Positions 29,749 through 58,605 of a stretch of DNA of 64,000 nucleotides are shown in pieces (within the stretch, counting starts at the first letter, position 1; every line of letters starts with the position of its first letter). Source of the DNA: an uncultured Gammaproteobacteria bacterium (GTDB taxonomy: Bacteria > Pseudomonadota > Gammaproteobacteria > Pseudomonadales > JAHEGP01); NCBI GenBank assembly GCA_963808975.1, contig CAWEHR010000001.1, positions 229,908-293,907 on the forward strand, read 5' to 3'. The notes beneath the pieces are model-generated. The model ran no database searches and was not told the DNA's origin. It was given only the letters and a program-made list of their open reading frames with translations. A program made the translations under genes and the position numbers.

Positions 29749-30798
29749 TCAATCAGCATTACCGGGATGTTTATCTTTTTGCGACCTGCCTCCGCTTTGC
29801 CGAAAGTTACCGGGGCTGGCACCCGTCCAGCTTTTGAAGGCACGGCTGAAGGCGCTTTGATCGGAAAAGCCCAGCAGTAGAGGTAACTCAGAGAGCCGGA
29901 GTGATGTACGCAATAAATAACGCTGCGCCAGTTCCTCCCTTACGCTATCCAGCAACGCCTGGTAGGAAAGGTTGTAGTGCTGGAGTTTACGTTGTACCGA
30001 CCGCGGTGAGCAGTGTAATTCCCTTGCGACCTGGGGCAGCGTGGTGCTGCCTTCCGGTATACCCTTGAGCAAGACATGCTGCAGGCGCAGGAGGAAGGGG
30101 TCTTCTATTCGAATCACGTTGGAGAAGGCTTCCTGTTGCTGGCACCGCATGGAATGAAAATCCCCGGGTGGCAGCCCGGGTGCGGCCTTGTAAACGGTAG
30201 CGGCGTTGAAACTTACACCCGGACTGGTGGACTCGAAGCTGACGGGGCAGGCAAAAAAGTCTTCGTAAATAGCGATATCATCCGGCGCGGTGCCGGTAAG
30301 GGACACCGCCACCAACTCGCAACCGTCGGGGAAGCGCTTGCGCAGGAAGGTCACCAGGGTACTCAGTGCAACCTGCACGAAAAGGGCGTTGTCATCCCCC
30401 AACGGGTCGGGCCAGGACAGCGTCCATGCTGTATCGGTACACAGGAGCCGCGCAAAGCTCACACCGTAGAAGTGGCGCTCACAGAGTAGATACGTTTCCA
30501 GGGCGTCGGCCAGCGACTCGCTGTTGAGCACCAGGTAGCCAAGCACACCAGTGTATGCCACCTGGACCTCGGCACCAATCTGGATACCGACGGGCTGCCC
30601 CGGTGCCAGAGCTGCGGCTTCGCCGAGCAGGGTGCGCCACTCTTCCACGCTGATCGCGTCCCTCCTGGCCAGTAAGCCCAGCCGGGTGCCCAGCTCAGGG
30701 CACTCGATTCCGTGGCGGATAATCCAGGCTTGAAGTGTTTGCGTGAAGCTTCCTGCAACTCGAATCATGACATCCAGCCTCAAGGCATCCCTGATCAA
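29749..30798 (-). CDS. AraC-family transcriptional regulator
   Basis: C-terminal double HTH (LPQVARELHCSPRSVQRKL ... GFSDQSAFSRAFKSWTGASP) with an N-terminal ligand-binding-type domain. Confidence 0.8.
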   Translation of the reverse strand: MIRDALRLDVMIRVAGSFTQTLQAWIIRHGIECPELGTRLGLLARRDAISVEEWRTLLGEAAALAPGQPVGIQIGAEVQVAYTGVLGYLVLNSESLADALETYLLCERHFYGVSFARLLCTDTAWTLSWPDPLGDDNALFVQVALSTLVTFLRKRFPDGCELVAVSLTGTAPDDIAIYEDFFACPVSFESTSPGVSFNAATVYKAAPGLPPGDFHSMRCQQQEAFSNVIRIEDPFLLRLQHVLLKGIPEGSTTLPQVARELHCSPRSVQRKLQHYNLSYQALLDSVREELAQRYLLRTSLRLSELPLLLGFSDQSAFSRAFKSWTGASPGNFRQSGGRSQKDKHPGNAD

Positions 30799-30850: not shown

Positions 30851-31837
30851 ATGGCGCAGTATGTCAATCTTTGTTTCGTCCATGGCCCTATTCTGGTTAC
30901 ATGGTTTCTACCGGGAGTGGTGATCATGCTGTCCCTGTTTGACGCTACCAGCCAACTCAGCGCCATTGACCCCAAACAATGGCTGCTATTTGTCCTGTTT
31001 CCGGTTTTTCTGTTGGTAGCGGCCCTGGAGGCACTGCATTTTAGGGGCAAAGCGATTTATGCACTCAGGGACAGCGCCGCCAGCATGGCGCTCGGGGCAA
31101 GTTACCTGATTCTTGAACTGATACTGTATGCACTTTTTGTCTGGGCAATCTTCGACTGGGTCTACCAGTTTCGGCAGATGACCATCGAAATGAATCCACT
31201 GCGCTTCCTCGCCCTCTACCTGGCCGTGGATTTCCTCTTCTATGTCTACCATCGCACTGCCCACCGCGTGCGCTGGTTCTGGGCCAGCCACTGCGTCCAT
31301 CACGCCTCGGAACACATGAATTTCACCACCGCGATGCGTCAGAGCGCATTGTATCCCCTCGCCTTTGTCTGGGCCTTTTTCCTGCCACTGAGCCTGTGCG
31401 GCTTCGACAAGGAGTGGATTTTCTCTGCCCTGGCGCTGAACCTGGCCTACCAGTATTTCCTCCATACACAGTGGATCGACAAGCTGCACCCGGCGATTGA
31501 ATGGCTGTTCAACACGCCCTCGCACCACCGGGTCCATCATGGGAGGAACAAGCGCTACATCGACCGCAACTACGGTGGCACACTGATTGTTTTCGATCGC
31601 ATCCTGGGAACGTTCACGGAAGAAGATCCCCACGAGCGGCCGGACTATGGCATCACCCGGCAGGTTTACAGTTACAACCCGGTGTGGCTGACCTTACACG
31701 AGTGGGTAGACATGTTCCGGGACATGGCACGGCCAGGCCCCCTGCGCGCGCGATTGAAGCATCTTTGGATGCCGCCAGACTGGCAGCGTAATCCGTCATT
31801 GTTGGAGAGAAAAAGGACAGAACATGAGACACCATGA
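30851..31837 (+). CDS. fatty-acid hydroxylase / sterol desaturase superfamily membrane di-iron enzyme (alkylglycerol-monooxygenase-like)
   Basis: Histidine boxes HRTAHRV, HCVHHAS and HHRVHHG in a polytopic protein. An alternative start lies at 30926 (MLSLFD). Confidence 0.75.
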   Translation: MAQYVNLCFVHGPILVTWFLPGVVIMLSLFDATSQLSAIDPKQWLLFVLFPVFLLVAALEALHFRGKAIYALRDSAASMALGASYLILELILYALFVWAIFDWVYQFRQMTIEMNPLRFLALYLAVDFLFYVYHRTAHRVRWFWASHCVHHASEHMNFTTAMRQSALYPLAFVWAFFLPLSLCGFDKEWIFSALALNLAYQYFLHTQWIDKLHPAIEWLFNTPSHHRVHHGRNKRYIDRNYGGTLIVFDRILGTFTEEDPHERPDYGITRQVYSYNPVWLTLHEWVDMFRDMARPGPLRARLKHLWMPPDWQRNPSLLERKRTEHETP

Positions 31838-40403: not shown

Positions 40404-43079
40404 TTAACCGTTGCCCGCAATGCGCTCCAGCACATATCTCAACACCCCGCCTGCGCGGTAATACTCAACCTCGACCGCCGTGTCCAGACGCGAGTGCAGT
40501 TCGATTTCCCGCTCCTCACCCGACGGGTAATGGATAATGGCGGGGCAAACCTGCTTTGCTGTCAATTGACCGTCGAGCCCGAGAATATCGAAGGTTTCAT
40601 CGCCTTTGAGCCCCAGCGTTTTGCGACTGTCACCCGGCGCGAACTGCAGGGGCAACACGCCCATGCCCACCAGGTTGGAACGGTGAATGCGCTCAAAACT
40701 CTCCACGATCACCGCTTTCACGCCGAGCAGTAAAGTACCCTTGGCGGCCCAGTCGCGACTGGAACCGGTGCCATACTCGCTACCGGCCACGATCACTGTC
40801 GGCAGGCCCTTGTCCTGGTATTTCATCGCCGCGTCGTAGATAAACAGCGGCTCGGTTGTGCCGATCAGGCGGGTATAGCCACCCTCGATTCCGGGCGTCA
40901 TCTCATTGCGAATACGAATATTGCCAAATGTTCCGCGCATCATGATTTCGTGGTTACCGCGGCGCGCACCGTAGGAGTTGAAGTCGGGCTGGGACACCCC
41001 GTGCTCGCGCAGGAATTGCGCCGCCGGGCTATCAGCCGGGATGGCACCGGCGGGGGAAATATGGTCGGTGGTCACCGAATCCCCAAGCATGGCCAGCATC
41101 GGAGCACCCACGATATTGCCCTGGTTGCCACCGTACTGGTCTTCGAAAAACGGCGGCAATTGAATATACGTGGAGTCGTCGGCAAAGCTGTAGGTGTCAC
41201 CACTGCCGCTGTCGATGGCTCGCCAGTTGGCGTCGCCCTCGAACACCGCGCCGTACTCCCGCGCGAACATGTCCTTGTTGACGGTCTGTACCAACTCTGC
41301 AATCTCCGCATTGCTGGGCCAGATATCCCGCAAATACACTGGCTGGCCATTACTGCCAGTGCCGATCGGATCCTCGCCCAGGTTGATACGCGTGGTGCCC
41401 GCCAGGGCATAGGCCACCACCAGTGGCGGCGATGCCAACCAGTTGGCCCGCACCAGGGGGTGAATCCTGCCCTCGAAATTGCGGTTGCCCGACAATACCG
41501 AACAAACCACCATATCGTTCTGCTCGATGGTGGCTGCTACCGCCTCGGGTAACGGCCCCGAATTGCCGATACAGGTCGTGCAGCCGTAACCGACCAGATT
41601 GAAACCCAGCGTGTTCAGCGCACCCTGCAGACCGGCGCGGGCAAGATAATCGGTAACCACGCGGGAACCGGGGGCGAGGGAGGTCTTCACCCAGGGCTTG
41701 CGCTGGAGACCCAGGGCAACGGCCTTTTGCGCCAGTAGTCCGGCCCCCAGCATGACGGCGGGATTGGAGGTATTGGTGCAGGAGGTAATGGCGGCTATAA
41801 CGACATCGCCATGGTGCATAGACTGCTCGCTATCCGCCAGGTCGAATTCCTGCTCCAGCTGCCCACTCTTGCCCTCGAGTTCCAGAAAGCTGTCGATGGC
41901 GCCTTTGAGCTGTGTCATCGGAACCCGGTCCTGGGGCCGCTTCGGGCCGGCCAGATTCGGCTCCACTGTCGCCATGTCCAGGGCCAGGGTTGAAGCAAAC
42001 TCCGGGGTGGGTGAATTTTCGTCACGCCACATTCCCTGGGCCCTGCAATACGCCTCGACCAGTGCGATGGTCGCCTCGTCCCGGCCACTCAACCTCAGGT
42101 AATTGACAGTCTGGGCGTCGATCGGGAAAAAGCCGCAGGTGGCGCCATACTCCGGTGCCATGTTGGCAATGGTCGCTCGATCGGCAAGGGGAAGATGATC
42201 GAGTCCGGAGCCATAAAATTCGACGAATTTCCCCACAACCTTGTGCTCACGCAGCATCTGCACCACACGCAGCACCAGGTCGGTAGCGGTAATTCCCTCC
42301 GCCAGATGGCCGCTGAGCTCAAACCCGACCACATCGGGAATGAGCATGGAGATCGGCTGCCCCAGCATAGCTGCCTCGGCTTCGATCCCGCCGACCCCCC
42401 AACCGAGTACGCCGAGGCCGTTTATCATAGTCGTATGACTGTCGGTACCTACCAGGGTGTCAGGGTAGGCCAGGTTCTCGCCGTCCTGGGACTGCGACCA
42501 GACCCCCCGCGCCAGGTATTCGAGATTCACCTGGTGGCAGATACCGGTGCCCGGCGGCACCACGCTGAAGTTGTCGAAGGCGCCCTGCCCCCACTTGAGG
42601 AATTGGTAGCGCTCGAGGTTGCGCCCCATCTCGATGGCGACGTTTTCCTCAAAAGCCTGCTCTGTGGCAAAGCTGTCGATACTGACCGAATGGTCGATCA
42701 CCAGATCGACCCGGGACAGGGGATTTATTTTCCGGGGGTCACGACCTCGTTGCACCAGCGCATCCCGCATCGCTGCAAGGTCCACCACGGCCGGCACACC
42801 GGTAAAATCCTGCATCAGCACCCGCGCCGGATGATAGGCTATCTCCTGGTCACTGCCGCGCCCCCGGCTCGCCACGAGGGCCTCGATGTCGTCCCGGGAA
42901 CATGTTACCCCGTCCTCATGTCGCAGCAGGTTTTCCAGCAGGATCTTGCTCGACACGGGCAGGCGCGCCACCTCTTCGTGGCGGGCCAGGGCACCGCCAT
43001 TGACGGCAAAATAGCTGTAGGTCACACCGTCAACGACCAGTTCACTGCGGGTACCAAACGAATCATCGGAAGTAACCAT
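40404..43079 (-). CDS. acnA: aconitate hydratase A
   Basis: About 890 aa from MVTSDDSFGTRSEL (GGAGA upstream of the ATG). Fe-S ligand contexts ITSCTNTSNP and GCTTCIGNSGPL, plus the C-terminal swivel domain. Confidence 0.9.
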   Translation of the reverse strand: MVTSDDSFGTRSELVVDGVTYSYFAVNGGALARHEEVARLPVSSKILLENLLRHEDGVTCSRDDIEALVASRGRGSDQEIAYHPARVLMQDFTGVPAVVDLAAMRDALVQRGRDPRKINPLSRVDLVIDHSVSIDSFATEQAFEENVAIEMGRNLERYQFLKWGQGAFDNFSVVPPGTGICHQVNLEYLARGVWSQSQDGENLAYPDTLVGTDSHTTMINGLGVLGWGVGGIEAEAAMLGQPISMLIPDVVGFELSGHLAEGITATDLVLRVVQMLREHKVVGKFVEFYGSGLDHLPLADRATIANMAPEYGATCGFFPIDAQTVNYLRLSGRDEATIALVEAYCRAQGMWRDENSPTPEFASTLALDMATVEPNLAGPKRPQDRVPMTQLKGAIDSFLELEGKSGQLEQEFDLADSEQSMHHGDVVIAAITSCTNTSNPAVMLGAGLLAQKAVALGLQRKPWVKTSLAPGSRVVTDYLARAGLQGALNTLGFNLVGYGCTTCIGNSGPLPEAVAATIEQNDMVVCSVLSGNRNFEGRIHPLVRANWLASPPLVVAYALAGTTRINLGEDPIGTGSNGQPVYLRDIWPSNAEIAELVQTVNKDMFAREYGAVFEGDANWRAIDSGSGDTYSFADDSTYIQLPPFFEDQYGGNQGNIVGAPMLAMLGDSVTTDHISPAGAIPADSPAAQFLREHGVSQPDFNSYGARRGNHEIMMRGTFGNIRIRNEMTPGIEGGYTRLIGTTEPLFIYDAAMKYQDKGLPTVIVAGSEYGTGSSRDWAAKGTLLLGVKAVIVESFERIHRSNLVGMGVLPLQFAPGDSRKTLGLKGDETFDILGLDGQLTAKQVCPAIIHYPSGEEREIELHSRLDTAVEVEYYRAGGVLRYVLERIAGNG

Positions 43080-43326
43080 TTTTATCTCCATTGCAGTCCA
43101 GCCCAAAAGCGACCGCCTGCCCACTTTTCACGCCCGGGCCGGTTGCGGCGATCCCCGTCTGTGTGTCGATGCCCAAAACCTGACGCGATGACAGCTGTTT
43201 GCTTGCCAACGCCGACCTGTAAACAGTATCACTCTCGACGGGCAGTCTCAAATACCTCGATTGCAACTCTCGGCGCCCGTGGTCGCCGAGCACAGCTGGC
43301 AGGGGAACACGGTGGCTGGCCCGGGG

Positions 43327-49078: not shown

Positions 49079-50251
49079 ATGGACGATAAAAATGATTCCG
49101 TTTTGTTGGTAGCAACCTGGGATTCAGGCACAGGCTATGCCTGGTGGCTAGTAGAAAGCTTCTGGGCGCAGTTAGGGTTCTATTTCTCGGAAAACTCAAG
49201 AAATGTTTATTTGGCATATCCGAGTATAAGTAAGATCTCCAATACGATATCCCAGTCGCCGATTAAGTTGACGCAACTGGATTTCAGAAAAAAAGATCTG
49301 AAGTCCGTAATTGGCCAGTGCAAGTTTTTACGACAAAAGAAAATCGGTACTATTTATTTCTCAGACTATCCACGTTGCCATTGGAGCTACCTCTTTTACC
49401 GGATGGCAGCAATAAAGTGCATTATCATTCATGACCATGCGCCGGGGATGAGGGAAAAACCACATCCAGTCAAGCGACTGCTAAAGCGCATGCTGGTTCG
49501 CCTCCCTGGAATTTGCGCTAACGGGCTCATCGGCGCAACGGATTATGTTCGAAAAAGGCATATTGAAGTGGACTGTTTTCCAGAAAAGAGATGCTTCAGT
49601 GCCCCTAACGGTTTGCCTGATCCGCCTGTCACGTTGCCATTGGATCTCCATAAAGTCTATGGCATCCCTGGCAACAGGAAGATAATGGTCACAACAGGAC
49701 GGGCAAGTCATTACAAGGGAGTAGATTTTGCGCTAGAAGTGCTCGCTATCCTGGTGAATAACGGGAATCGCAGAGACGTTCATTATCTATTTTGTGGTGA
49801 TGGACCAAATATTGATGAATTCAGGCGGTTAGCAAATAGATTGAACATACAGGACTATGTGACCTTTACGGGCTATATAAGTCACGTGTATTCCCATCTC
49901 CTCGCTTGTGATTTCGCCATTCATCCGTCCAAGGGGGAAGTCGGATATTCCCTGTCTATTCTGGAGTACATGCAGGCAGGTTTACCGGTGATTGTGCCTG
50001 ACAATCCGTCAGTGTGCGGTGCAAGCGTTTCTGGGATCAATGGCTTTGTATACAAAGAGGGTTGCACGCTCGATGCCGCTGACAAGGTCATAGAGCTATT
50101 AGATGATCCAATACTGGTCGAACGAATGGGCGAGCAGGCCAGACAATATGTGCAGGAAACACACAGGTTAGAAGTGACCCACCAGCGGCTGCTGAATGCG
50201 GTGATTGCGATTGAAAAGTCTACCTTCCTACATAGAGTCGACACAATTTGA
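49079..50251 (+). CDS. glycosyltransferase, GT-B fold (GT4-like)
   Basis: 390-aa ORF. The C-terminal half has the GT4 pattern (GRASHYKGVDFALE...PSKGEVGYSLSILEYMQAGLPVIV). Visibly AT-richer codon usage than the neighbours. Confidence 0.7.
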   Translation: MDDKNDSVLLVATWDSGTGYAWWLVESFWAQLGFYFSENSRNVYLAYPSISKISNTISQSPIKLTQLDFRKKDLKSVIGQCKFLRQKKIGTIYFSDYPRCHWSYLFYRMAAIKCIIIHDHAPGMREKPHPVKRLLKRMLVRLPGICANGLIGATDYVRKRHIEVDCFPEKRCFSAPNGLPDPPVTLPLDLHKVYGIPGNRKIMVTTGRASHYKGVDFALEVLAILVNNGNRRDVHYLFCGDGPNIDEFRRLANRLNIQDYVTFTGYISHVYSHLLACDFAIHPSKGEVGYSLSILEYMQAGLPVIVPDNPSVCGASVSGINGFVYKEGCTLDAADKVIELLDDPILVERMGEQARQYVQETHRLEVTHQRLLNAVIAIEKSTFLHRVDTI

Positions 50252-54263: not shown

Positions 54264-54905
54264 TCACCAACGCAACAGCGACGGCAGTAAAAAGCGCCCT
54301 ATCAACGCTCCCGCAAGCACCGGCGCGACATGCCAGATACCCAGGTGCACCACGCTATCAGCCGTACATGCCAGACCATAGGCGGCCGAACCCAGCGCGG
54401 TTGATGCAACACCGATATACAGGCCCGCCGTAGCGGGCGAAACCGGTGCGCCGCGGCGCAGCCAAAGGACCAATGCCGCTGCACACAGTAAGGAAGCTGC
54501 CAGACCAGCGCCAAAACAGCTCAGGCCATGGTGGTCGATGATGGACGCCAGGCCACGATCGCGCCCAAACAAAGCGACAAACGCCGCGAGCGGCAGCACA
54601 GCAACCATCGCCATCGCCCATTTCGGGCCGTCATGGCTATTGCCAACACCCGGGCAGGCCATTTTGAGAACACTATTGGTACTGGCGCTGCCAAGGATCA
54701 GCAGCAATCCGCTGGTGACCACAAAAAAAGCCGAGGCTTGCCCGGTCCAGGCACCACGCCACAGGCCGCTGAGCAGTTCGACGGCCAGCATTGTAATGAG
54801 CATGGCCAAACTGACAAGTACAAGACCATCGCGGTACTTGATTGAACGCACCGGTTGCAACTCTGCTGCCATCTGTTCGATTAAAGGATTAGGGGCCCGC
54901 TTCAT
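54264..54905 (-). CDS. nrsF: NrsF-like (DUF1109) membrane anti-sigma factor
   Basis: 213 aa with six predicted TM segments. N-terminal LIEQMAAELQPVR is typical of DUF1109. Starts 2 nt after the ECF sigma stop. Confidence 0.7.
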   Translation of the reverse strand: MKRAPNPLIEQMAAELQPVRSIKYRDGLVLVSLAMLITMLAVELLSGLWRGAWTGQASAFFVVTSGLLLILGSASTNSVLKMACPGVGNSHDGPKWAMAMVAVLPLAAFVALFGRDRGLASIIDHHGLSCFGAGLAASLLCAAALVLWLRRGAPVSPATAGLYIGVASTALGSAAYGLACTADSVVHLGIWHVAPVLAGALIGRFLLPSLLRW

Positions 54906-54907
54906 TA

Positions 54908-55438
54908 CTATTCTGCCTTTTCAACCAGTGTGGAGAGGTTTTTCAACCCGCGATGAATATTCACTTTGACAGCAGCCTCTGTCTGTCCGCTTTTTGCAGC
55001 GGCTTCCCGTATGGAAAGCCCCGCTATTTTGACCAGTTCAATTGCTTGTGCCTGTTTGTCGGGAATCTGGCCGAACATTCGATCCAGGCTAAGACGGGCC
55101 ATGATGGCCTCTTCATCACTGTCCTGAGTTGCATCGTGATCTGCCAGAGCATCTTCCGCATTGCGGTAAACGACACGTAGATGGTCAACCCAGCGGTAGC
55201 GCGCGATGGCAGCAAGCCAGGGCAGAAAGGGCCGCGTTGGGTCGTAGCTGGCGCGCTTGTTATGCACCGCTACCAGCACCTCCTGCACCAGATCGTCAAT
55301 CTGGCTCGGTGCGCAGCGGCGGCGGAAAAAGCGCTCCAGCCACAACTGCACCTCAGTGAGGAGTACCGTGTAGGCCTGCTTGTCGCCTTTCTGCGAACAG
55401 GCCATCAGGCGAGCTAAGGTTGGTTCATCTGCAATCAC
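54908..55438 (-). CDS. ECF RNA polymerase sigma factor (SigF-type by context)
   Basis: Region 2 (DLVQEVLVAVHNKRASYDPTRPFLPWLAAIARYRWVDHLR) and region 4 HTH (LVKIAGLSIREAAAKSGQTEAAVKVNIHRGLKNL). Confidence 0.85.
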   Translation of the reverse strand: MIADEPTLARLMACSQKGDKQAYTVLLTEVQLWLERFFRRRCAPSQIDDLVQEVLVAVHNKRASYDPTRPFLPWLAAIARYRWVDHLRVVYRNAEDALADHDATQDSDEEAIMARLSLDRMFGQIPDKQAQAIELVKIAGLSIREAAAKSGQTEAAVKVNIHRGLKNLSTLVEKAE

Positions 55439-55450
55439 AGTCCTTTCCCG

Positions 55451-55915
55451 CTATTTTACGCCCCGGCGCAACAGGCTTAACAGCGCGTCGACAGAAAAGG
55501 TACCGGCCCCGCGAGAGATCAAGATCAACGACATCGCCGCCCATAAACTGTGTGCTGCCCACCATGCATCAGGGTATACAAAAATCTGGATTGTCATTGT
55601 CATGAAAAACAGAGACAAGGCCGAAAAGCGCGTCGCAAAACCCAGAACCAACAGGATCGGGAAAACATGCTCAGCATAGGTCGCCAAATACATCGATAGC
55701 TCGGTCGGCAGCGGCACCGCACTGTATTCCTCCTGAAACAGGTAGCGCGTAGTGCCGCTAGGCTCCAGCCAACTGCCTTCCACCACTTTGGTCCGACCGG
55801 AGCGCCAAAACACACCGGCCAGCGCAAAGCGCGTGAGCAGCAGCGCAACGCTTTCAAAAGCGCGGCCCGACAGGATACCACTTAGCCGGTCGTACTGTTC
55901 GCTCAACCACTGCAT
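55451..55915 (-). CDS. DoxX-family membrane protein
   Basis: 154 aa with four TM segments. LLLTRFALAGVFWRSGRTK and SRGAGTFSVDALL are DoxX motifs. Confidence 0.8.
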   Translation of the reverse strand: MQWLSEQYDRLSGILSGRAFESVALLLTRFALAGVFWRSGRTKVVEGSWLEPSGTTRYLFQEEYSAVPLPTELSMYLATYAEHVFPILLVLGFATRFSALSLFFMTMTIQIFVYPDAWWAAHSLWAAMSLILISRGAGTFSVDALLSLLRRGVK

Positions 55916-55944
55916 ATTACGGACTCCTTATCGGCCTGGCAGTA

Positions 55945-56229
55945 TCAGCGCTTAATCGGCTCCAGCGAGCCCTTGCCTTTGGGAGTCTCAATGCTTTCAC
56001 AGCTACCCTTTTCGACCAGTTTCCAGGCATCACCTTGATAATCGCGGGTGGACGTTCCAGCGCAGCTCGTGCCCGGTCCAGCGGCGCAATCGTTGCCACC
56101 GGCCTTGGCCACGCCATAGCATTTTTCCATGGCGTCGCTTTGCGCAAGGGCCGGCGTGATGCTAAGACCAGCCGATATACCGGCTGCAAGTGCGAATCCG
56201 GCTATTTTTCCGATGTTGTTCCTGGTCAT
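55945..56229 (-). CDS. DUF2282-family Cys-containing secreted peptide (bufferin BufA1-type RiPP precursor)
   Basis: Start [29 protein letters not shown] (Sec signal, AxA site) with AGGAG upstream. Core [44 protein letters not shown] carries the four DUF2282 cysteines. Confidence 0.8.
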
Positions 56230-56289
56230 CTGTAATCTCCTGAAAAAAGAAAGGTAATGGGTCATTCCAGTGAATGGTGCCCTAAGTAG

Positions 56290-56315
56290 TTCGTCAGTCA
56301 GCGGTGATTGGTTAC
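56290..56315 (-). promoter_or_regulatory. candidate SigF-type ECF promoter for the DUF2282-doxX-sigma-nrsF operon
   Basis: The minus strand reads GTAACC-(16 nt: AATCACCGCTGACTGA)-CGAA, about 60 nt upstream of the 56229 start codon. Confidence 0.55.
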
Positions 56316-56349
56316 ACACACACGGAAAATAAATTTTTGCGATGATGTT

Positions 56350-56375
56350 GTAACTTTTGTTTGCGCCGCAGCGAA
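56350..56375 (+). promoter_or_regulatory. candidate SigF-type ECF promoter for the 6-Cys precursor-DUF692-DUF2063 operon
   Basis: The plus strand reads GTAACT-(16 nt: TTTGTTTGCGCCGCAG)-CGAA, about 62 nt upstream of the 56438 start codon. Confidence 0.55.
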
Positions 56376-56437
56376 TACCCTTGTGTCCAGACCGGGCATC
56401 ACATTTACGTGACAAACACCAAGAAGAGGAAAAACTC

Positions 56438-56719
56438 ATGAGCAAGCTATCTAATTTCGCCGCGACCGCCGCCGCCCTGGCACTGAGCTCTGCTGCAGTA
56501 TTTGCCGCAGATGCGCCCGCAGGAAGCAGTGGCCAGGCCTTGAACAGCGAAGACACTGTCCATTGCTATGGCCTGCACGACTGCAAAGGCAATGCAGACT
56601 GCGCAACTACCCAGAACGCCTGCAAGGGCAAAAACGCCTGCAAAGGCCACGGATTCAAAGCAATGGAAGCCGGCGCGTGCCTGACCAAGGGCGGCACCAT
56701 CGGTGACATTGGCCAATAA
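56438..56719 (+). CDS. 6-Cys CKG-repeat secreted peptide (bufferin BufA2 / BUF_6/12Cys-type RiPP precursor)
   Basis: ATG preceded by [30 protein letters not shown] signal peptide. Core [40 protein letters not shown] has six Cys in Cxx / CKG spacing. Confidence 0.75.
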
Positions 56720-56739
56720 ATGAAACCTGTAACCGCAAC

Positions 56740-56895
56740 GGCACTTAACTTAACGCCACTACAGCGATTTGCGCAGCCCCGGTGTGTTCGATCTGCGGGC
56801 GTCTGCGGCAGGGAAGCCGCAGTCGAGCCTCCAGGGACGGATTCACGGCGTACCGCGGATCGAACACACCGGATACAGCCGTTTAAGTAAGTGCC
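56740..56895 (+). other. long imperfect hairpin between the precursor and DUF692 genes
   Basis: Outer arms GGCACTTAACTTAA / TTTAAGTAAGTGCC. Inner 15-bp perfect arms CCGGTGTGTTCGATC (56779-56793) / GATCGAACACACCGG (56858-56872), extendable to 18 bp with one G-U pair. Apical sub-hairpin CTGCGGC-AGGGAA-GCCGCAG. A further 7-bp hairpin lies at 56913-56932. Confidence 0.55.
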
Positions 56896-56986
56896 ATTAC
56901 CTCTAACCAGCCGACTGTGTGAGCGCACAGTCGACCCCGACCCGCGCTTACACAGTACCGGGCCGCACTATTTTTTTGGAGCCATT

Positions 56987-57826
56987 ATGAGCAACATCGA
57001 TCCGTTTTCTGGCTTCGGCCTTGGCCTTCGGCGGGATCACTACAAGGATTTCCTGGAAGGTGAGGTGCCGGTCGATTTTGTTGAGGTGATATCCGAAAAC
57101 TATATGGTCGATGGCGGCAGGCCGTTGCGTGTTCTCGAGCAGGTCCGCGCAAAAATCCCGGTGATCCTGCATGGGGTCTCCATGTCGATCGGGTCCGCTG
57201 ACGGGCTAAACCCGGACTATCTGGCAAAGCTCAAAGCCCTCGCGGAGCGAATCGAGCCGCTGTGGGTTTCCGACCACCTATGTTGGACCGGCACCAGCGC
57301 CCACAACAGCCATGACCTGCTGCCCCTGCCGTATACACTCGAGGCGCTCGATATAGTGTGCGACAACATTGACCTGGCGCAGGAGACCCTGGGCCGGCCC
57401 CTGTTATTCGAAAACCCCTCAAGTTACATGACTTTTCCCGATGACGAGATGAGCGAATGGGAGTTTATATCCCACATGGCGCAGCGCAGTGGCTGTTACC
57501 TGTTGCTAGACATCAACAATGTTTTTGTCAGTGCGCATAATCATGGGTTTGCGGCCGAGGATTATCTCGCCGGCTTACCGCTGGACCACGTGCGGCAAAT
57601 CCACCTCGCGGGTCACACCGATGGCATAATCAAAATCGACACACATGACCAGCCGGTCTGCGAGGGCGTATGGCAGCTTTATGCCAAGGCCCGCGGCATG
57701 CTGCCTGCCAGCGTGGCGACCATGATCGAGCGCGACGATGACATCCCGCTGCTGCCCGCACTCCTCGATGAGCTGGAACTGGCGCGCCAGTACATCCCGT
57801 GTCAACAACAGTCGGGAGTCGCCTGA
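56987..57826 (+). CDS. DUF692-family multinuclear non-heme iron oxidative enzyme (MNIO; BufB/MbnB-like)
   Basis: Start MSNIDPFSGFGLGLRRDHY. FVEVISENYM, ILHGVSMSIGS, VSDHLCW, LFENPSSY, LLLDINNVFVSAHNHG and IHLAGH are the conserved TIM-barrel metal-binding blocks of DUF692. Confidence 0.9.
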   Translation: MSNIDPFSGFGLGLRRDHYKDFLEGEVPVDFVEVISENYMVDGGRPLRVLEQVRAKIPVILHGVSMSIGSADGLNPDYLAKLKALAERIEPLWVSDHLCWTGTSAHNSHDLLPLPYTLEALDIVCDNIDLAQETLGRPLLFENPSSYMTFPDDEMSEWEFISHMAQRSGCYLLLDINNVFVSAHNHGFAAEDYLAGLPLDHVRQIHLAGHTDGIIKIDTHDQPVCEGVWQLYAKARGMLPASVATMIERDDDIPLLPALLDELELARQYIPCQQQSGVA

Positions 57827-58605
57827 TGGTCAACACAACGCTGAGCGCACATCAGCAGGAATTTCTGGCACATATGCTGGACCATGAGCGCACGCTGCCG
57901 GGGGGTTGGAATGCGCGCCACGCTGCCGGCATGGACATCTATCGCAATGCCTATCGCGCCCGGCTGGTCGATGCCTTGCGCGATACTTACGAATGCACCG
58001 CGCGCTGGGTTGGCGAGGACGCTTTCCAGCAGTCGGCGGCGCATCATGTCATTACCCATCCACCCAACAGCTGGACCCTGGATGATGTGGGTCAGGCGTT
58101 TCCCGATACCCTGCGCGAGTTGTTCGCGGGCGACCCCGAAGTCGCCGAGCTTGGCTGGCTTGAATGGGCAATGCATCGGTGTTTTGTGGCTGCTGATACA
58201 GCCCCGATCGATGCCGCGGGTTTTCGGGCGGCCACAGCGTCGTTTGAAGAGCACGACTGGGCCACCATGCGCCTGACCTTTCTCCCTGGAACGTATCAGG
58301 CGCCTATCTCGCATGATATCGGCACGCTCTGGAAGGCCCTGAAGCAGGGAACGTCGGCGAGCCCAGACTACTCGGCAAAAACACCGCTGTATTGTGTCGT
58401 GTGGCGAGAGGAACTGAAACCGGTCTTCACCCAGGTCGATGCGGCTGAAGGAAAGGCACTTGCCACCCTGCTTGGTGGCGCAAGTTATGGCGAGGCCTGC
58501 AATGCCCTGATTGACCTTCTGGGGGAAGAAGCAGCAGTCACCCAGGCCGGCGCCATGCTGGGCCGCTGGCTGCACCACGGCATGATAGCTGGCGTCTCAA
58601 AGTAA
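57826..58605 (+). CDS. DUF2063-family partner protein (BufC/MbnC-like)
   Basis: The ATG overlaps the DUF692 TGA by 1 nt (TGATG). The N-terminal QQEFLAHMLD...GMDIYRNAYRARLVDALRDTY pattern is typical of DUF2063. Confidence 0.8.
   Translation: MVNTTLSAHQQEFLAHMLDHERTLPGGWNARHAAGMDIYRNAYRARLVDALRDTYECTARWVGEDAFQQSAAHHVITHPPNSWTLDDVGQAFPDTLRELFAGDPEVAELGWLEWAMHRCFVAADTAPIDAAGFRAATASFEEHDWATMRLTFLPGTYQAPISHDIGTLWKALKQGTSASPDYSAKTPLYCVVWREELKPVFTQVDAAEGKALATLLGGASYGEACNALIDLLGEEAAVTQAGAMLGRWLHHGMIAGVSK

Follow-up and report, generated by a model that had tools for sequence, protein, structure and literature searches.

The seven genes under study lie in a 64-kb stretch (hereafter, the window) of contig CAWEHR010000001.1 (assembly GCA_963808975.1, positions 229,908 to 293,907) from an uncultured Gammaproteobacteria bacterium, and form a genuine bufferin locus with two precursors, its own sigma factor and one enzyme pair. 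Bufferins make up the largest known group among the peptides synthesized ribosomally and then modified post-translationally (RiPPs) that are made by multinuclear non-haem iron oxidative enzymes (MNIOs), and represent a widespread copper-defence system. In the window, the precursor gene bufA1 is joined to doxX, to the gene of an extracytoplasmic function (ECF) sigma factor and to nrsF on the minus strand, and it faces a second precursor gene, bufA2, followed by the genes of the MNIO BufB and of its partner BufC. The main conclusion of the analysis is that the single BufB/BufC pair probably matures not only BufA2 but also BufA1, whose gene is divergent, with an estimated probability of approximately 0.68. 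The split layout is itself a common, conserved variant, which is present in dozens of species and prevails among the nearest relatives of the locus.

The evidence that carries the conclusion comes from related loci, which were collected by a BufB scan of species-representative genomes; the closest 80 loci (57−78% BufB identity) were listed, and the seven families were called in each of them with iterated profiles. The arrangement of the window, with nrsF-sigma-doxX-bufA1 opposite bufA2-bufB-bufC, was found in 35 of the 80 listed loci, a few of which are without an adjacent sigma or nrsF gene. A further 19 listed loci (L006, L007, L011, L012, L017, L019, L021−L023, L025, L027, L029, L030, L032, L034−L037 and L063; labelled mostly Erythrobacter or Qipengyuania) have the bufA1 operon in the same divergent position, with no bufA2 within 20 kb, which brings the total of the split layout to 54. 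In these bufA2-less loci, a gap of 200−470 nucleotides separates bufA1 from bufB, with a plus-strand sigma-F-type motif directly before bufB, and inspection by hand of the gap in two of them (L012 and L022) revealed no Cys-rich secreted open reading frame (ORF). Thus, the sole local substrate for BufB and BufC in the 19 loci is the divergent BufA1, which lends comparative support to the proposal, made in a preliminary description of the window from its letters alone, that one pair would mature both precursors. The comparison of synteny that had been suggested at that stage also showed that the layout is not rare. On the other hand, the emphasis placed on maturation in trans adds little, given that the substrate of a RiPP maturase is always a separate polypeptide.

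Judging from their alignment, BufA1 and BufA2 are homologous and constitute sister families. Their identity amounts to 34% across 53 aligned residues, four Cys fall in register, a CYG strand is shared, and the BufA2 profile matches BufA1 at 1.4e-11, so that the earlier view of two unrelated cores has to be abandoned; the corresponding Caulobacter pair had already been termed paralogous by Kohler et al. (PMC3511200). BufA1 contains four Cys residues in a conserved pattern (KCYG, NDCAAG, SCAG and GSCE) and BufA2 six, as counted in the sequence; by eye, both precursors exhibit a basic n-region and a hydrophobic core, along with cleavage motifs of the AXA type (ALA|Q and VFA|A). The BufA1 core of the split loci is near-identical to, and indistinguishable from, that of the BufA1 proteins encoded beside their own BufB1, and the segment flanking the pair of Cys that undergo modification in Caulobacter hardly varies, which points to purifying selection on BufA1 in the split loci. 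In Caulobacter, the signal peptide was found to be dispensable for modification and the core peptide to take part in recognition (Leprevost et al., PMC11626156). That BufA1 is instead left unmodified, serving, for example, as a thiol-based metal binder or interacting with DoxX or NrsF, or persisting as a relic, appears rather improbable. Grouping of bufA1 with doxX and the regulators, and not with the enzyme genes, would agree with it, and an unmodified state has been left open for precursors not linked to an MNIO gene (PMC12452194). However, the core is almost invariant and the same as in the enzyme-linked BufA1 proteins, a sigma-F-type promoter of the gene's own persists in about 50 species, and the bufA2-less loci retain the enzyme pair.

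By sequence, the enzymes of all the split-layout loci, that of the window included, are of the BufA2-linked (BufB2) lineage. The BufB protein of the window is 57−79% identical to BufA2-linked enzymes and 39−48% to BufA1-linked ones, and the split between BufB1 and BufB2 obtained a bootstrap value of 100/100; this split is the only feature of the BufB tree used here as firm evidence. The bufA1 operon is without MNIO and DUF2063 genes of its own, the sole pair in the locus being encoded on the opposite strand and belonging to the BufA2-linked lineage. Alternatively, BufA1 might depend for its maturation on a BufB1/BufC1 pair of its own at another place in the genome, with the local pair acting on BufA2 only and the divergent arrangement reflecting shared regulation. 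Such a situation, which we consider unlikely, would reproduce that of Caulobacter, where each precursor has a separate pair (PMC11626156), and one related locus (L039) does have a second bufA1 and a bufB approximately 9 kb away. However, it would leave BufB and BufC of the 19 bufA2-less loci without a local substrate, the seven genes move as one unit into different genomic contexts, and there is no second enzyme copy in the window, 64 kb of the genome being the scope of this and of all the other within-window absences reported here.

Other observations weigh against maturation of both precursors by the single pair, and some of them favour a dedicated one. Two complete enzyme sets are found side by side in six of the 80 listed loci (L052, L055, L058, L065, L069 and L079), an organization that is possibly the ancestral state. 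FonBC, a related MNIO pair, did not process motifs of the Cys-Lys type (PMC13097082), and therefore motif selectivity at the level of precursor classes exists within the MNIO family. The maturation of BufA1 by BufB/BufC is deduced from sequence, in a view that covers 64 kb of the genome, and a separate bufB1-bufC1 pair could be encoded elsewhere. In the neighbour-joining tree, the bufA2-less loci branch from within the split group with a support of 45/100, and the split-layout clade as a whole received 4/100; with bootstrap values that give no monophyly of this clade, the clean nested history that could be read from the tree was dropped as evidence. On the regulatory side, NrsF scores 25 bits with the NCBIfam NrsF equivalog model, below its cut-off of 300, and the best NCBIfam subfamily model for the ECF sigma factor yields 150.7 bits against a cut-off of 171; the latter is called SigF-like because of its NrsF partner and the promoter motifs described below, rather than from an equivalog profile. 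A specificity residue beside the catalytic Asp (THD-x) or at the GLGLRR site was also considered on the basis of PMC13097082, and it was dropped, as no clean rule separates the two classes; the split-layout enzymes contain mostly RR or RK, with Q, R or A following the Asp.

Returning to the single pair acting on both precursors, the history that we slightly favour is one in which a pair of the BufB2 lineage widened its range to BufA1, and BufA2 was then lost in the subgroup labelled mostly Erythrobacter and Qipengyuania; that bufA2 was lost only once, after the substrate take-over, is put forward as a hypothesis. If true, this would document a substrate take-over in the largest family of MNIO RiPPs, and loci with two sets, with one set and two precursors, and with one set and the ‘wrong’ precursor would provide a natural series for mapping how BufB and BufC recognize the core peptide. 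One pair facing two sister precursor families offers a direct and cheap test of substrate recognition, and the bufA2-less relatives, in which the non-cognate family alone is left, likewise offer a test both of recognition and of the published idea of one complex for several precursors discussed below.

The seven genes were located from the ORF listing and then placed by profile hidden Markov models (HMMs) of Pfam and NCBIfam (table 1). The family assignments and the coordinates of the preliminary description were borne out for every gene, the two small ORFs included (PF10048 for DUF2282 and NF050166 for BufA2), as were the presence of one MNIO/DUF2063 pair beside both precursor classes and the association of bufA1 with doxX, sigma and nrsF rather than with the enzyme genes. 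From the coordinates, the minus-strand genes are separated by 29 (bufA1-doxX), 12 (doxX-sigma) and 2 nucleotides (sigma-nrsF), and the divergent spacer between bufA1 and bufA2 measures 208 bp. All seven ORFs are intact, and base 57826 is common to the bufB TGA and to the bufC ATG (TGATG, a 1-nucleotide overlap read directly in the sequence). BufA2 found no match in Pfam, and it is only the NCBIfam BufA2 model that places it. The models of the Hvf subfamily were tried as well: BufC reached 34 bits with the HvfC equivalog (cut-off, 142), as expected for a different subfamily, BufB 233 bits with HvfB (cut-off, 360) and DoxX 52.6 bits with the HvfX equivalog (cut-off, 80), none of them attaining the threshold. 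Profiles built from the relatives identified no second member of any of the seven families in the window.

Table 1. Genes and sequence elements of the bufferin locus, with positions in the window.
Feature	Position	Strand	Assignment and details
nrsF	54264-54905	-	six-transmembrane (TM) anti-sigma factor (DUF1109/NrsF); PF06532, 122 bits (cut-off 26.8), E 3.5e-35
ECF sigma factor, SigF-like	54908-55438	-	Sigma70_r2, Sigma70_r4_2 and Sigma70_ECF matches
doxX	55451-55915	-	bufD-like membrane protein; PF07681, 63 bits
bufA1	55945-56229	-	DUF2282 precursor, 94 residues; PF10048, 85.8 bits (cut-off 22.4)
Sigma-F-type promoter motif facing bufA1	56290-56315	-	GTAACC-N16-CGAA, exact
Sigma-F-type promoter motif facing bufA2	56350-56375	+	GTAACT-N16-CGAA, one mismatch
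bufA2	56438-56719	+	Buf_6/12Cys (Cys-Lys type) precursor, 93 residues; NF050166 Cu_RiPP_BufA2, 96.4 bits (cut-off 60)
Nested palindromic element	56725-56899	.	approximately 175 nucleotides; inverted repeats with arms of 20 and 19 nucleotides
Conserved native spacer	56912-56977	+	hairpins 56912-56933 and 56938-56965; T7 run 56971-56977, immediately ahead of the bufB ribosome-binding site
bufB	56987-57826	+	MNIO (DUF692) maturase; NF050167 MNIO_BufB, 360.7 bits (cut-off 310); PF05114, 345 bits, E 2.5e-103
bufC	57826-58605	+	DUF2063 (PME-type-1) partner; PF09836, 72.3 bits (cut-off 27.2)

Control of the module by a sigma-F/NrsF couple would be well grounded in the analogy with Caulobacter, where the sigma-F site, GTAACC-N16-CGAA, was defined by 5′ rapid amplification of cDNA ends (5′RACE) and reporter assays (Kohler et al., PMC3511200). 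The two motifs in the divergent spacer (GTAAC-N17-CGAA) are placed back to back with 34 bp between them, each approximately 55 nucleotides upstream of a start codon. A relaxed form of the pattern has three matches in the window versus 0.23 expected, and 49 of the 54 related split loci contain one sigma-F-type motif per direction in the divergent spacer. NrsF residues C130 (kept by 59 of 60 homologues) and C180 (kept by all 60) correspond to C131 and C181 of Caulobacter NrsF, substitution of which de-represses the regulon (PMC3511200). From bufA1 to the sigma gene, no further sigma-F-type motif was detected with one mismatch allowed, and therefore sigma-F-dependent transcription of the sigma gene and of nrsF would start at the bufA1 promoter. 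We infer from this arrangement that the genes are co-transcribed, and from the Caulobacter system the nature of the inducing signal. The design would thus be a compact one, in which a precursor gene travels with its own sigma/anti-sigma pair under one of two back-to-back promoters. The positive autoregulatory loop previously proposed for the locus is only in part sustained: the presence of a motif before bufA1 and its absence before the sigma gene speak for it; however, autoregulation of Caulobacter sigF was tested and judged not strong, despite a sigma-F-type promoter upstream of sigF (PMC3511200). A generic scan for sigma-70 promoters and terminators gave no more matches than shuffled sequence. 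A third exact GTAACC-N16-CGAA motif is found far from the locus, at 30875-30900 (minus strand), 77 nucleotides upstream of an AraC-family gene (29749-30798, minus strand) and inside the first codons of a divergent gene of the fatty-acid-hydroxylase family (30851-31837, plus strand); it may reveal an additional member of the sigma-F regulon or be due to chance.

By taking into account the gene identities, the promoter motifs, the conserved layout and the lineage of the enzymes, a self-contained bufferin module controlled by sigma-F and NrsF can be proposed, with two divergent operons that would be fired from the back-to-back promoters. Metal stress (copper by analogy with Caulobacter, and also chromate and cadmium) would act on the periplasmic Cys pair of NrsF, which would then free the ECF sigma factor. 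The latter would transcribe bufA1-doxX-sigF-nrsF leftward, in a positive feedback checked by the anti-sigma factor made at the same time, and bufA2-bufB-bufC rightward. In the cytoplasm, BufB and BufC would convert the central Cys residues of BufA2 into 5-thiooxazoles and, most likely, do the same on the homologous BufA1. Both precursors would then be exported by the Sec system, lose the signal peptide, form a disulfide between the outer Cys residues and buffer copper in the periplasm. For the Cys chemistry and for copper binding, the proposal follows the characterized relatives of the module.

The module appears to be portable. The full-layout loci are distributed over many Sphingomonadales genera and also occur in Congregibacter, Halopseudomonas salina and Luteimonas, and the nearest named relatives of the window module belong to Erythrobacteraceae and Halieaceae. 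The annotation of the 893-kb replicon pBSY17_1 of cultured Sphingobium sp. RAC03 shows this layout too, with bufA2 labelled ‘hypothetical protein’. Metagenomic relatives with 87−92% BufB identity exhibit the identical seven genes with identical lengths and different flanking genes. When compared with L001, L003 and L004, the seven proteins vary in step (64−84% identity) and gene order is shared no further than the borders of the module, with almost no homologues of the window ORFs lying outside 54267-58602 in the flanks of any locus. With synteny ending at the seven genes and the flanks differing, the seven genes behave as one portable module, of a design that has been transferable between Alpha- and Gammaproteobacteria. 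An accidental or degenerate juxtaposition, i.e. the remnant of a recent rearrangement or deletion with no functional coupling, is very improbable and can be regarded as effectively refuted: the insertion between bufA2 and bufB described below does indicate that the locus has been disturbed, but the ORFs are intact, the spacing is tight with a 1-nucleotide overlap, the gap between bufA1 and doxX is too small for gene remnants, and the layout is conserved with both promoters across two proteobacterial classes. Among the listed loci, a different arrangement with a single pair is seen in L042, L056 and L072 (Undibacterium, Massilia and Pseudomonas sp. Bc-h), where bufA1, with or without doxX, is co-directional with bufA2-bufB-bufC, approximately 1 kb upstream of it, and has no MNIO gene of its own. 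The module in L024, on a contig labelled as a Prosthecochloris vibrioformis metagenome-assembled genome (MAG), differs very little from the one in a Sphingomonas MAG (L016), and the contig is probably mis-binned.

The gap between bufA2 and bufB, at 267 nucleotides, is unusually long because of the nested palindromic element. The predicted fold of the corresponding RNA (56716-56990) has an energy of −115.7 kcal/mol (z −5.96), and the large hairpin was considered as a regulatory element. However, alignment demonstrated that the element is near-identical in L082, absent from L084, L086 and L001 and present as a single copy in the window. It is therefore an insertion shared with L082 alone and not a conserved part of the module, so that a regulatory role was rejected; it looks like an insertion of the miniature inverted-repeat transposable element or repetitive extragenic palindrome (MITE/REP) type. 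For the hairpins of the native spacer, RNAalifold on eight loci returned 19 pairs, with compensatory changes in nine of them, and together with the T-run these hairpins may act as a read-through attenuator that sets the ratio of precursor to enzyme. A scan of the locus against Rfam gave sub-threshold chance matches only.

The closest relative of the left operon is buf1 of Caulobacter vibrioides (bufA1-bufB1-bufC1-bufD1/doxX, CCNA_03363-03366) with the adjacent sigF-nrsF genes. The two systems have in common the four-Cys DUF2282 precursor, with a putative Sec signal in the window, and DoxX (PMC11626156), as well as the ECF sigma-F factor, the six-TM NrsF with two conserved Cys and the GTAACC-N16-CGAA promoter (PMC3511200). 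They differ in that the window is without bufB1 and bufC1 between bufA1 and doxX, and in that bufA1, doxX, sigma and nrsF form one apparent operon, with no separate motif before the sigma gene. The right operon resembles Caulobacter buf2 (bufA2-bufB2-bufC2, CCNA_02999-03001) in its three genes and their order, in the six-Cys precursor of the Cys-Lys type, in being free of doxX, in the BufA2-linked MNIO and in the sigma-F-type promoter upstream. However, while Caulobacter buf2 is a separate locus with dedicated enzymes, the corresponding operon of the window stands head-to-head with the operon of bufA1 and the regulators and provides the locus with its only pair. In the 2024 report (PNAS), buf1 and buf2 were indeed described as separate operons with their own enzymes, sigF-nrsF being near buf1 (PMC11626156). 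The gig operons of Cupriavidus metallidurans and Legionella pneumophila, which are metal-induced, combine the same DUF2282, DUF692, DUF2063 and DoxX families (cited in PMC11626156); unlike the locus of the window, each of them has all its genes in one direction in a single operon, with one class of precursor. An MNIO with a DUF2063 partner is also found in the captophorin systems (oxazolin/Hvf of Haemophilus, fontiphorin of Fontimonas and gonophorin), in which the MNIO and the PME-type-1 partner install 5-thiooxazoles on Cys residues of Sec-exported copper binders, but their precursors contain EGKCG (Lys-Cys) repeats (PMC13097082).

A RiPP pathway in which one maturase serves many genetically separate precursors is that of ProcM and the prochlorosins. 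The likeness is limited to one enzyme having several separate substrates: the ProcM enzyme family and chemistry are unrelated, and the window offers only two substrates, which are of sister families. Among bufferins, the concept of one pair for several precursors is already anticipated in print as a hypothesis: a 2025 survey mentioned genomes that combine several precursors with one MNIO-partner pair, and raised the possibility that related precursors could share one modifying complex (PMC12452194). No description of a mixed Buf1/Buf2 split module, of the paired promoters or of the bufA2-less derivative was found in the literature searched; with 54 of the 80 listed loci split, the architecture is not an unusual one. 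A search for papers in which DUF2282, DUF692 or bufferins are connected with sphingomonads or Halieaceae found nothing relevant, and a Microbulbifer paper dealt with a different precursor type. The locus brings no new enzyme class, chemistry or regulatory principle.

According to the same survey, sigma/anti-sigma genes are present in Buf1 and not in Buf2 biosynthetic gene clusters (PMC12452194). Their placement in some of the listed loci is at odds with this restriction: in L052 and L055, bufA2 is immediately preceded, on its own strand, by an ECF sigma gene and nrsF, nrsF alone has this position in L059, and in L054 nrsF is divergent from the sigma gene.

As for the rest of the window, the aconitase AcnA (40404-43124, minus strand) is 91% identical to MAG proteins and 78−80% identical to Halieaceae/Halioglobus proteins, and the host is therefore probably a gammaproteobacterium akin to the Halieaceae. 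Between 48001 and 50000, the GC content falls to 0.516 versus a window mean of approximately 0.59; this segment, which overlaps an ORF of 390 residues (49079-50251, plus strand), may be foreign DNA.

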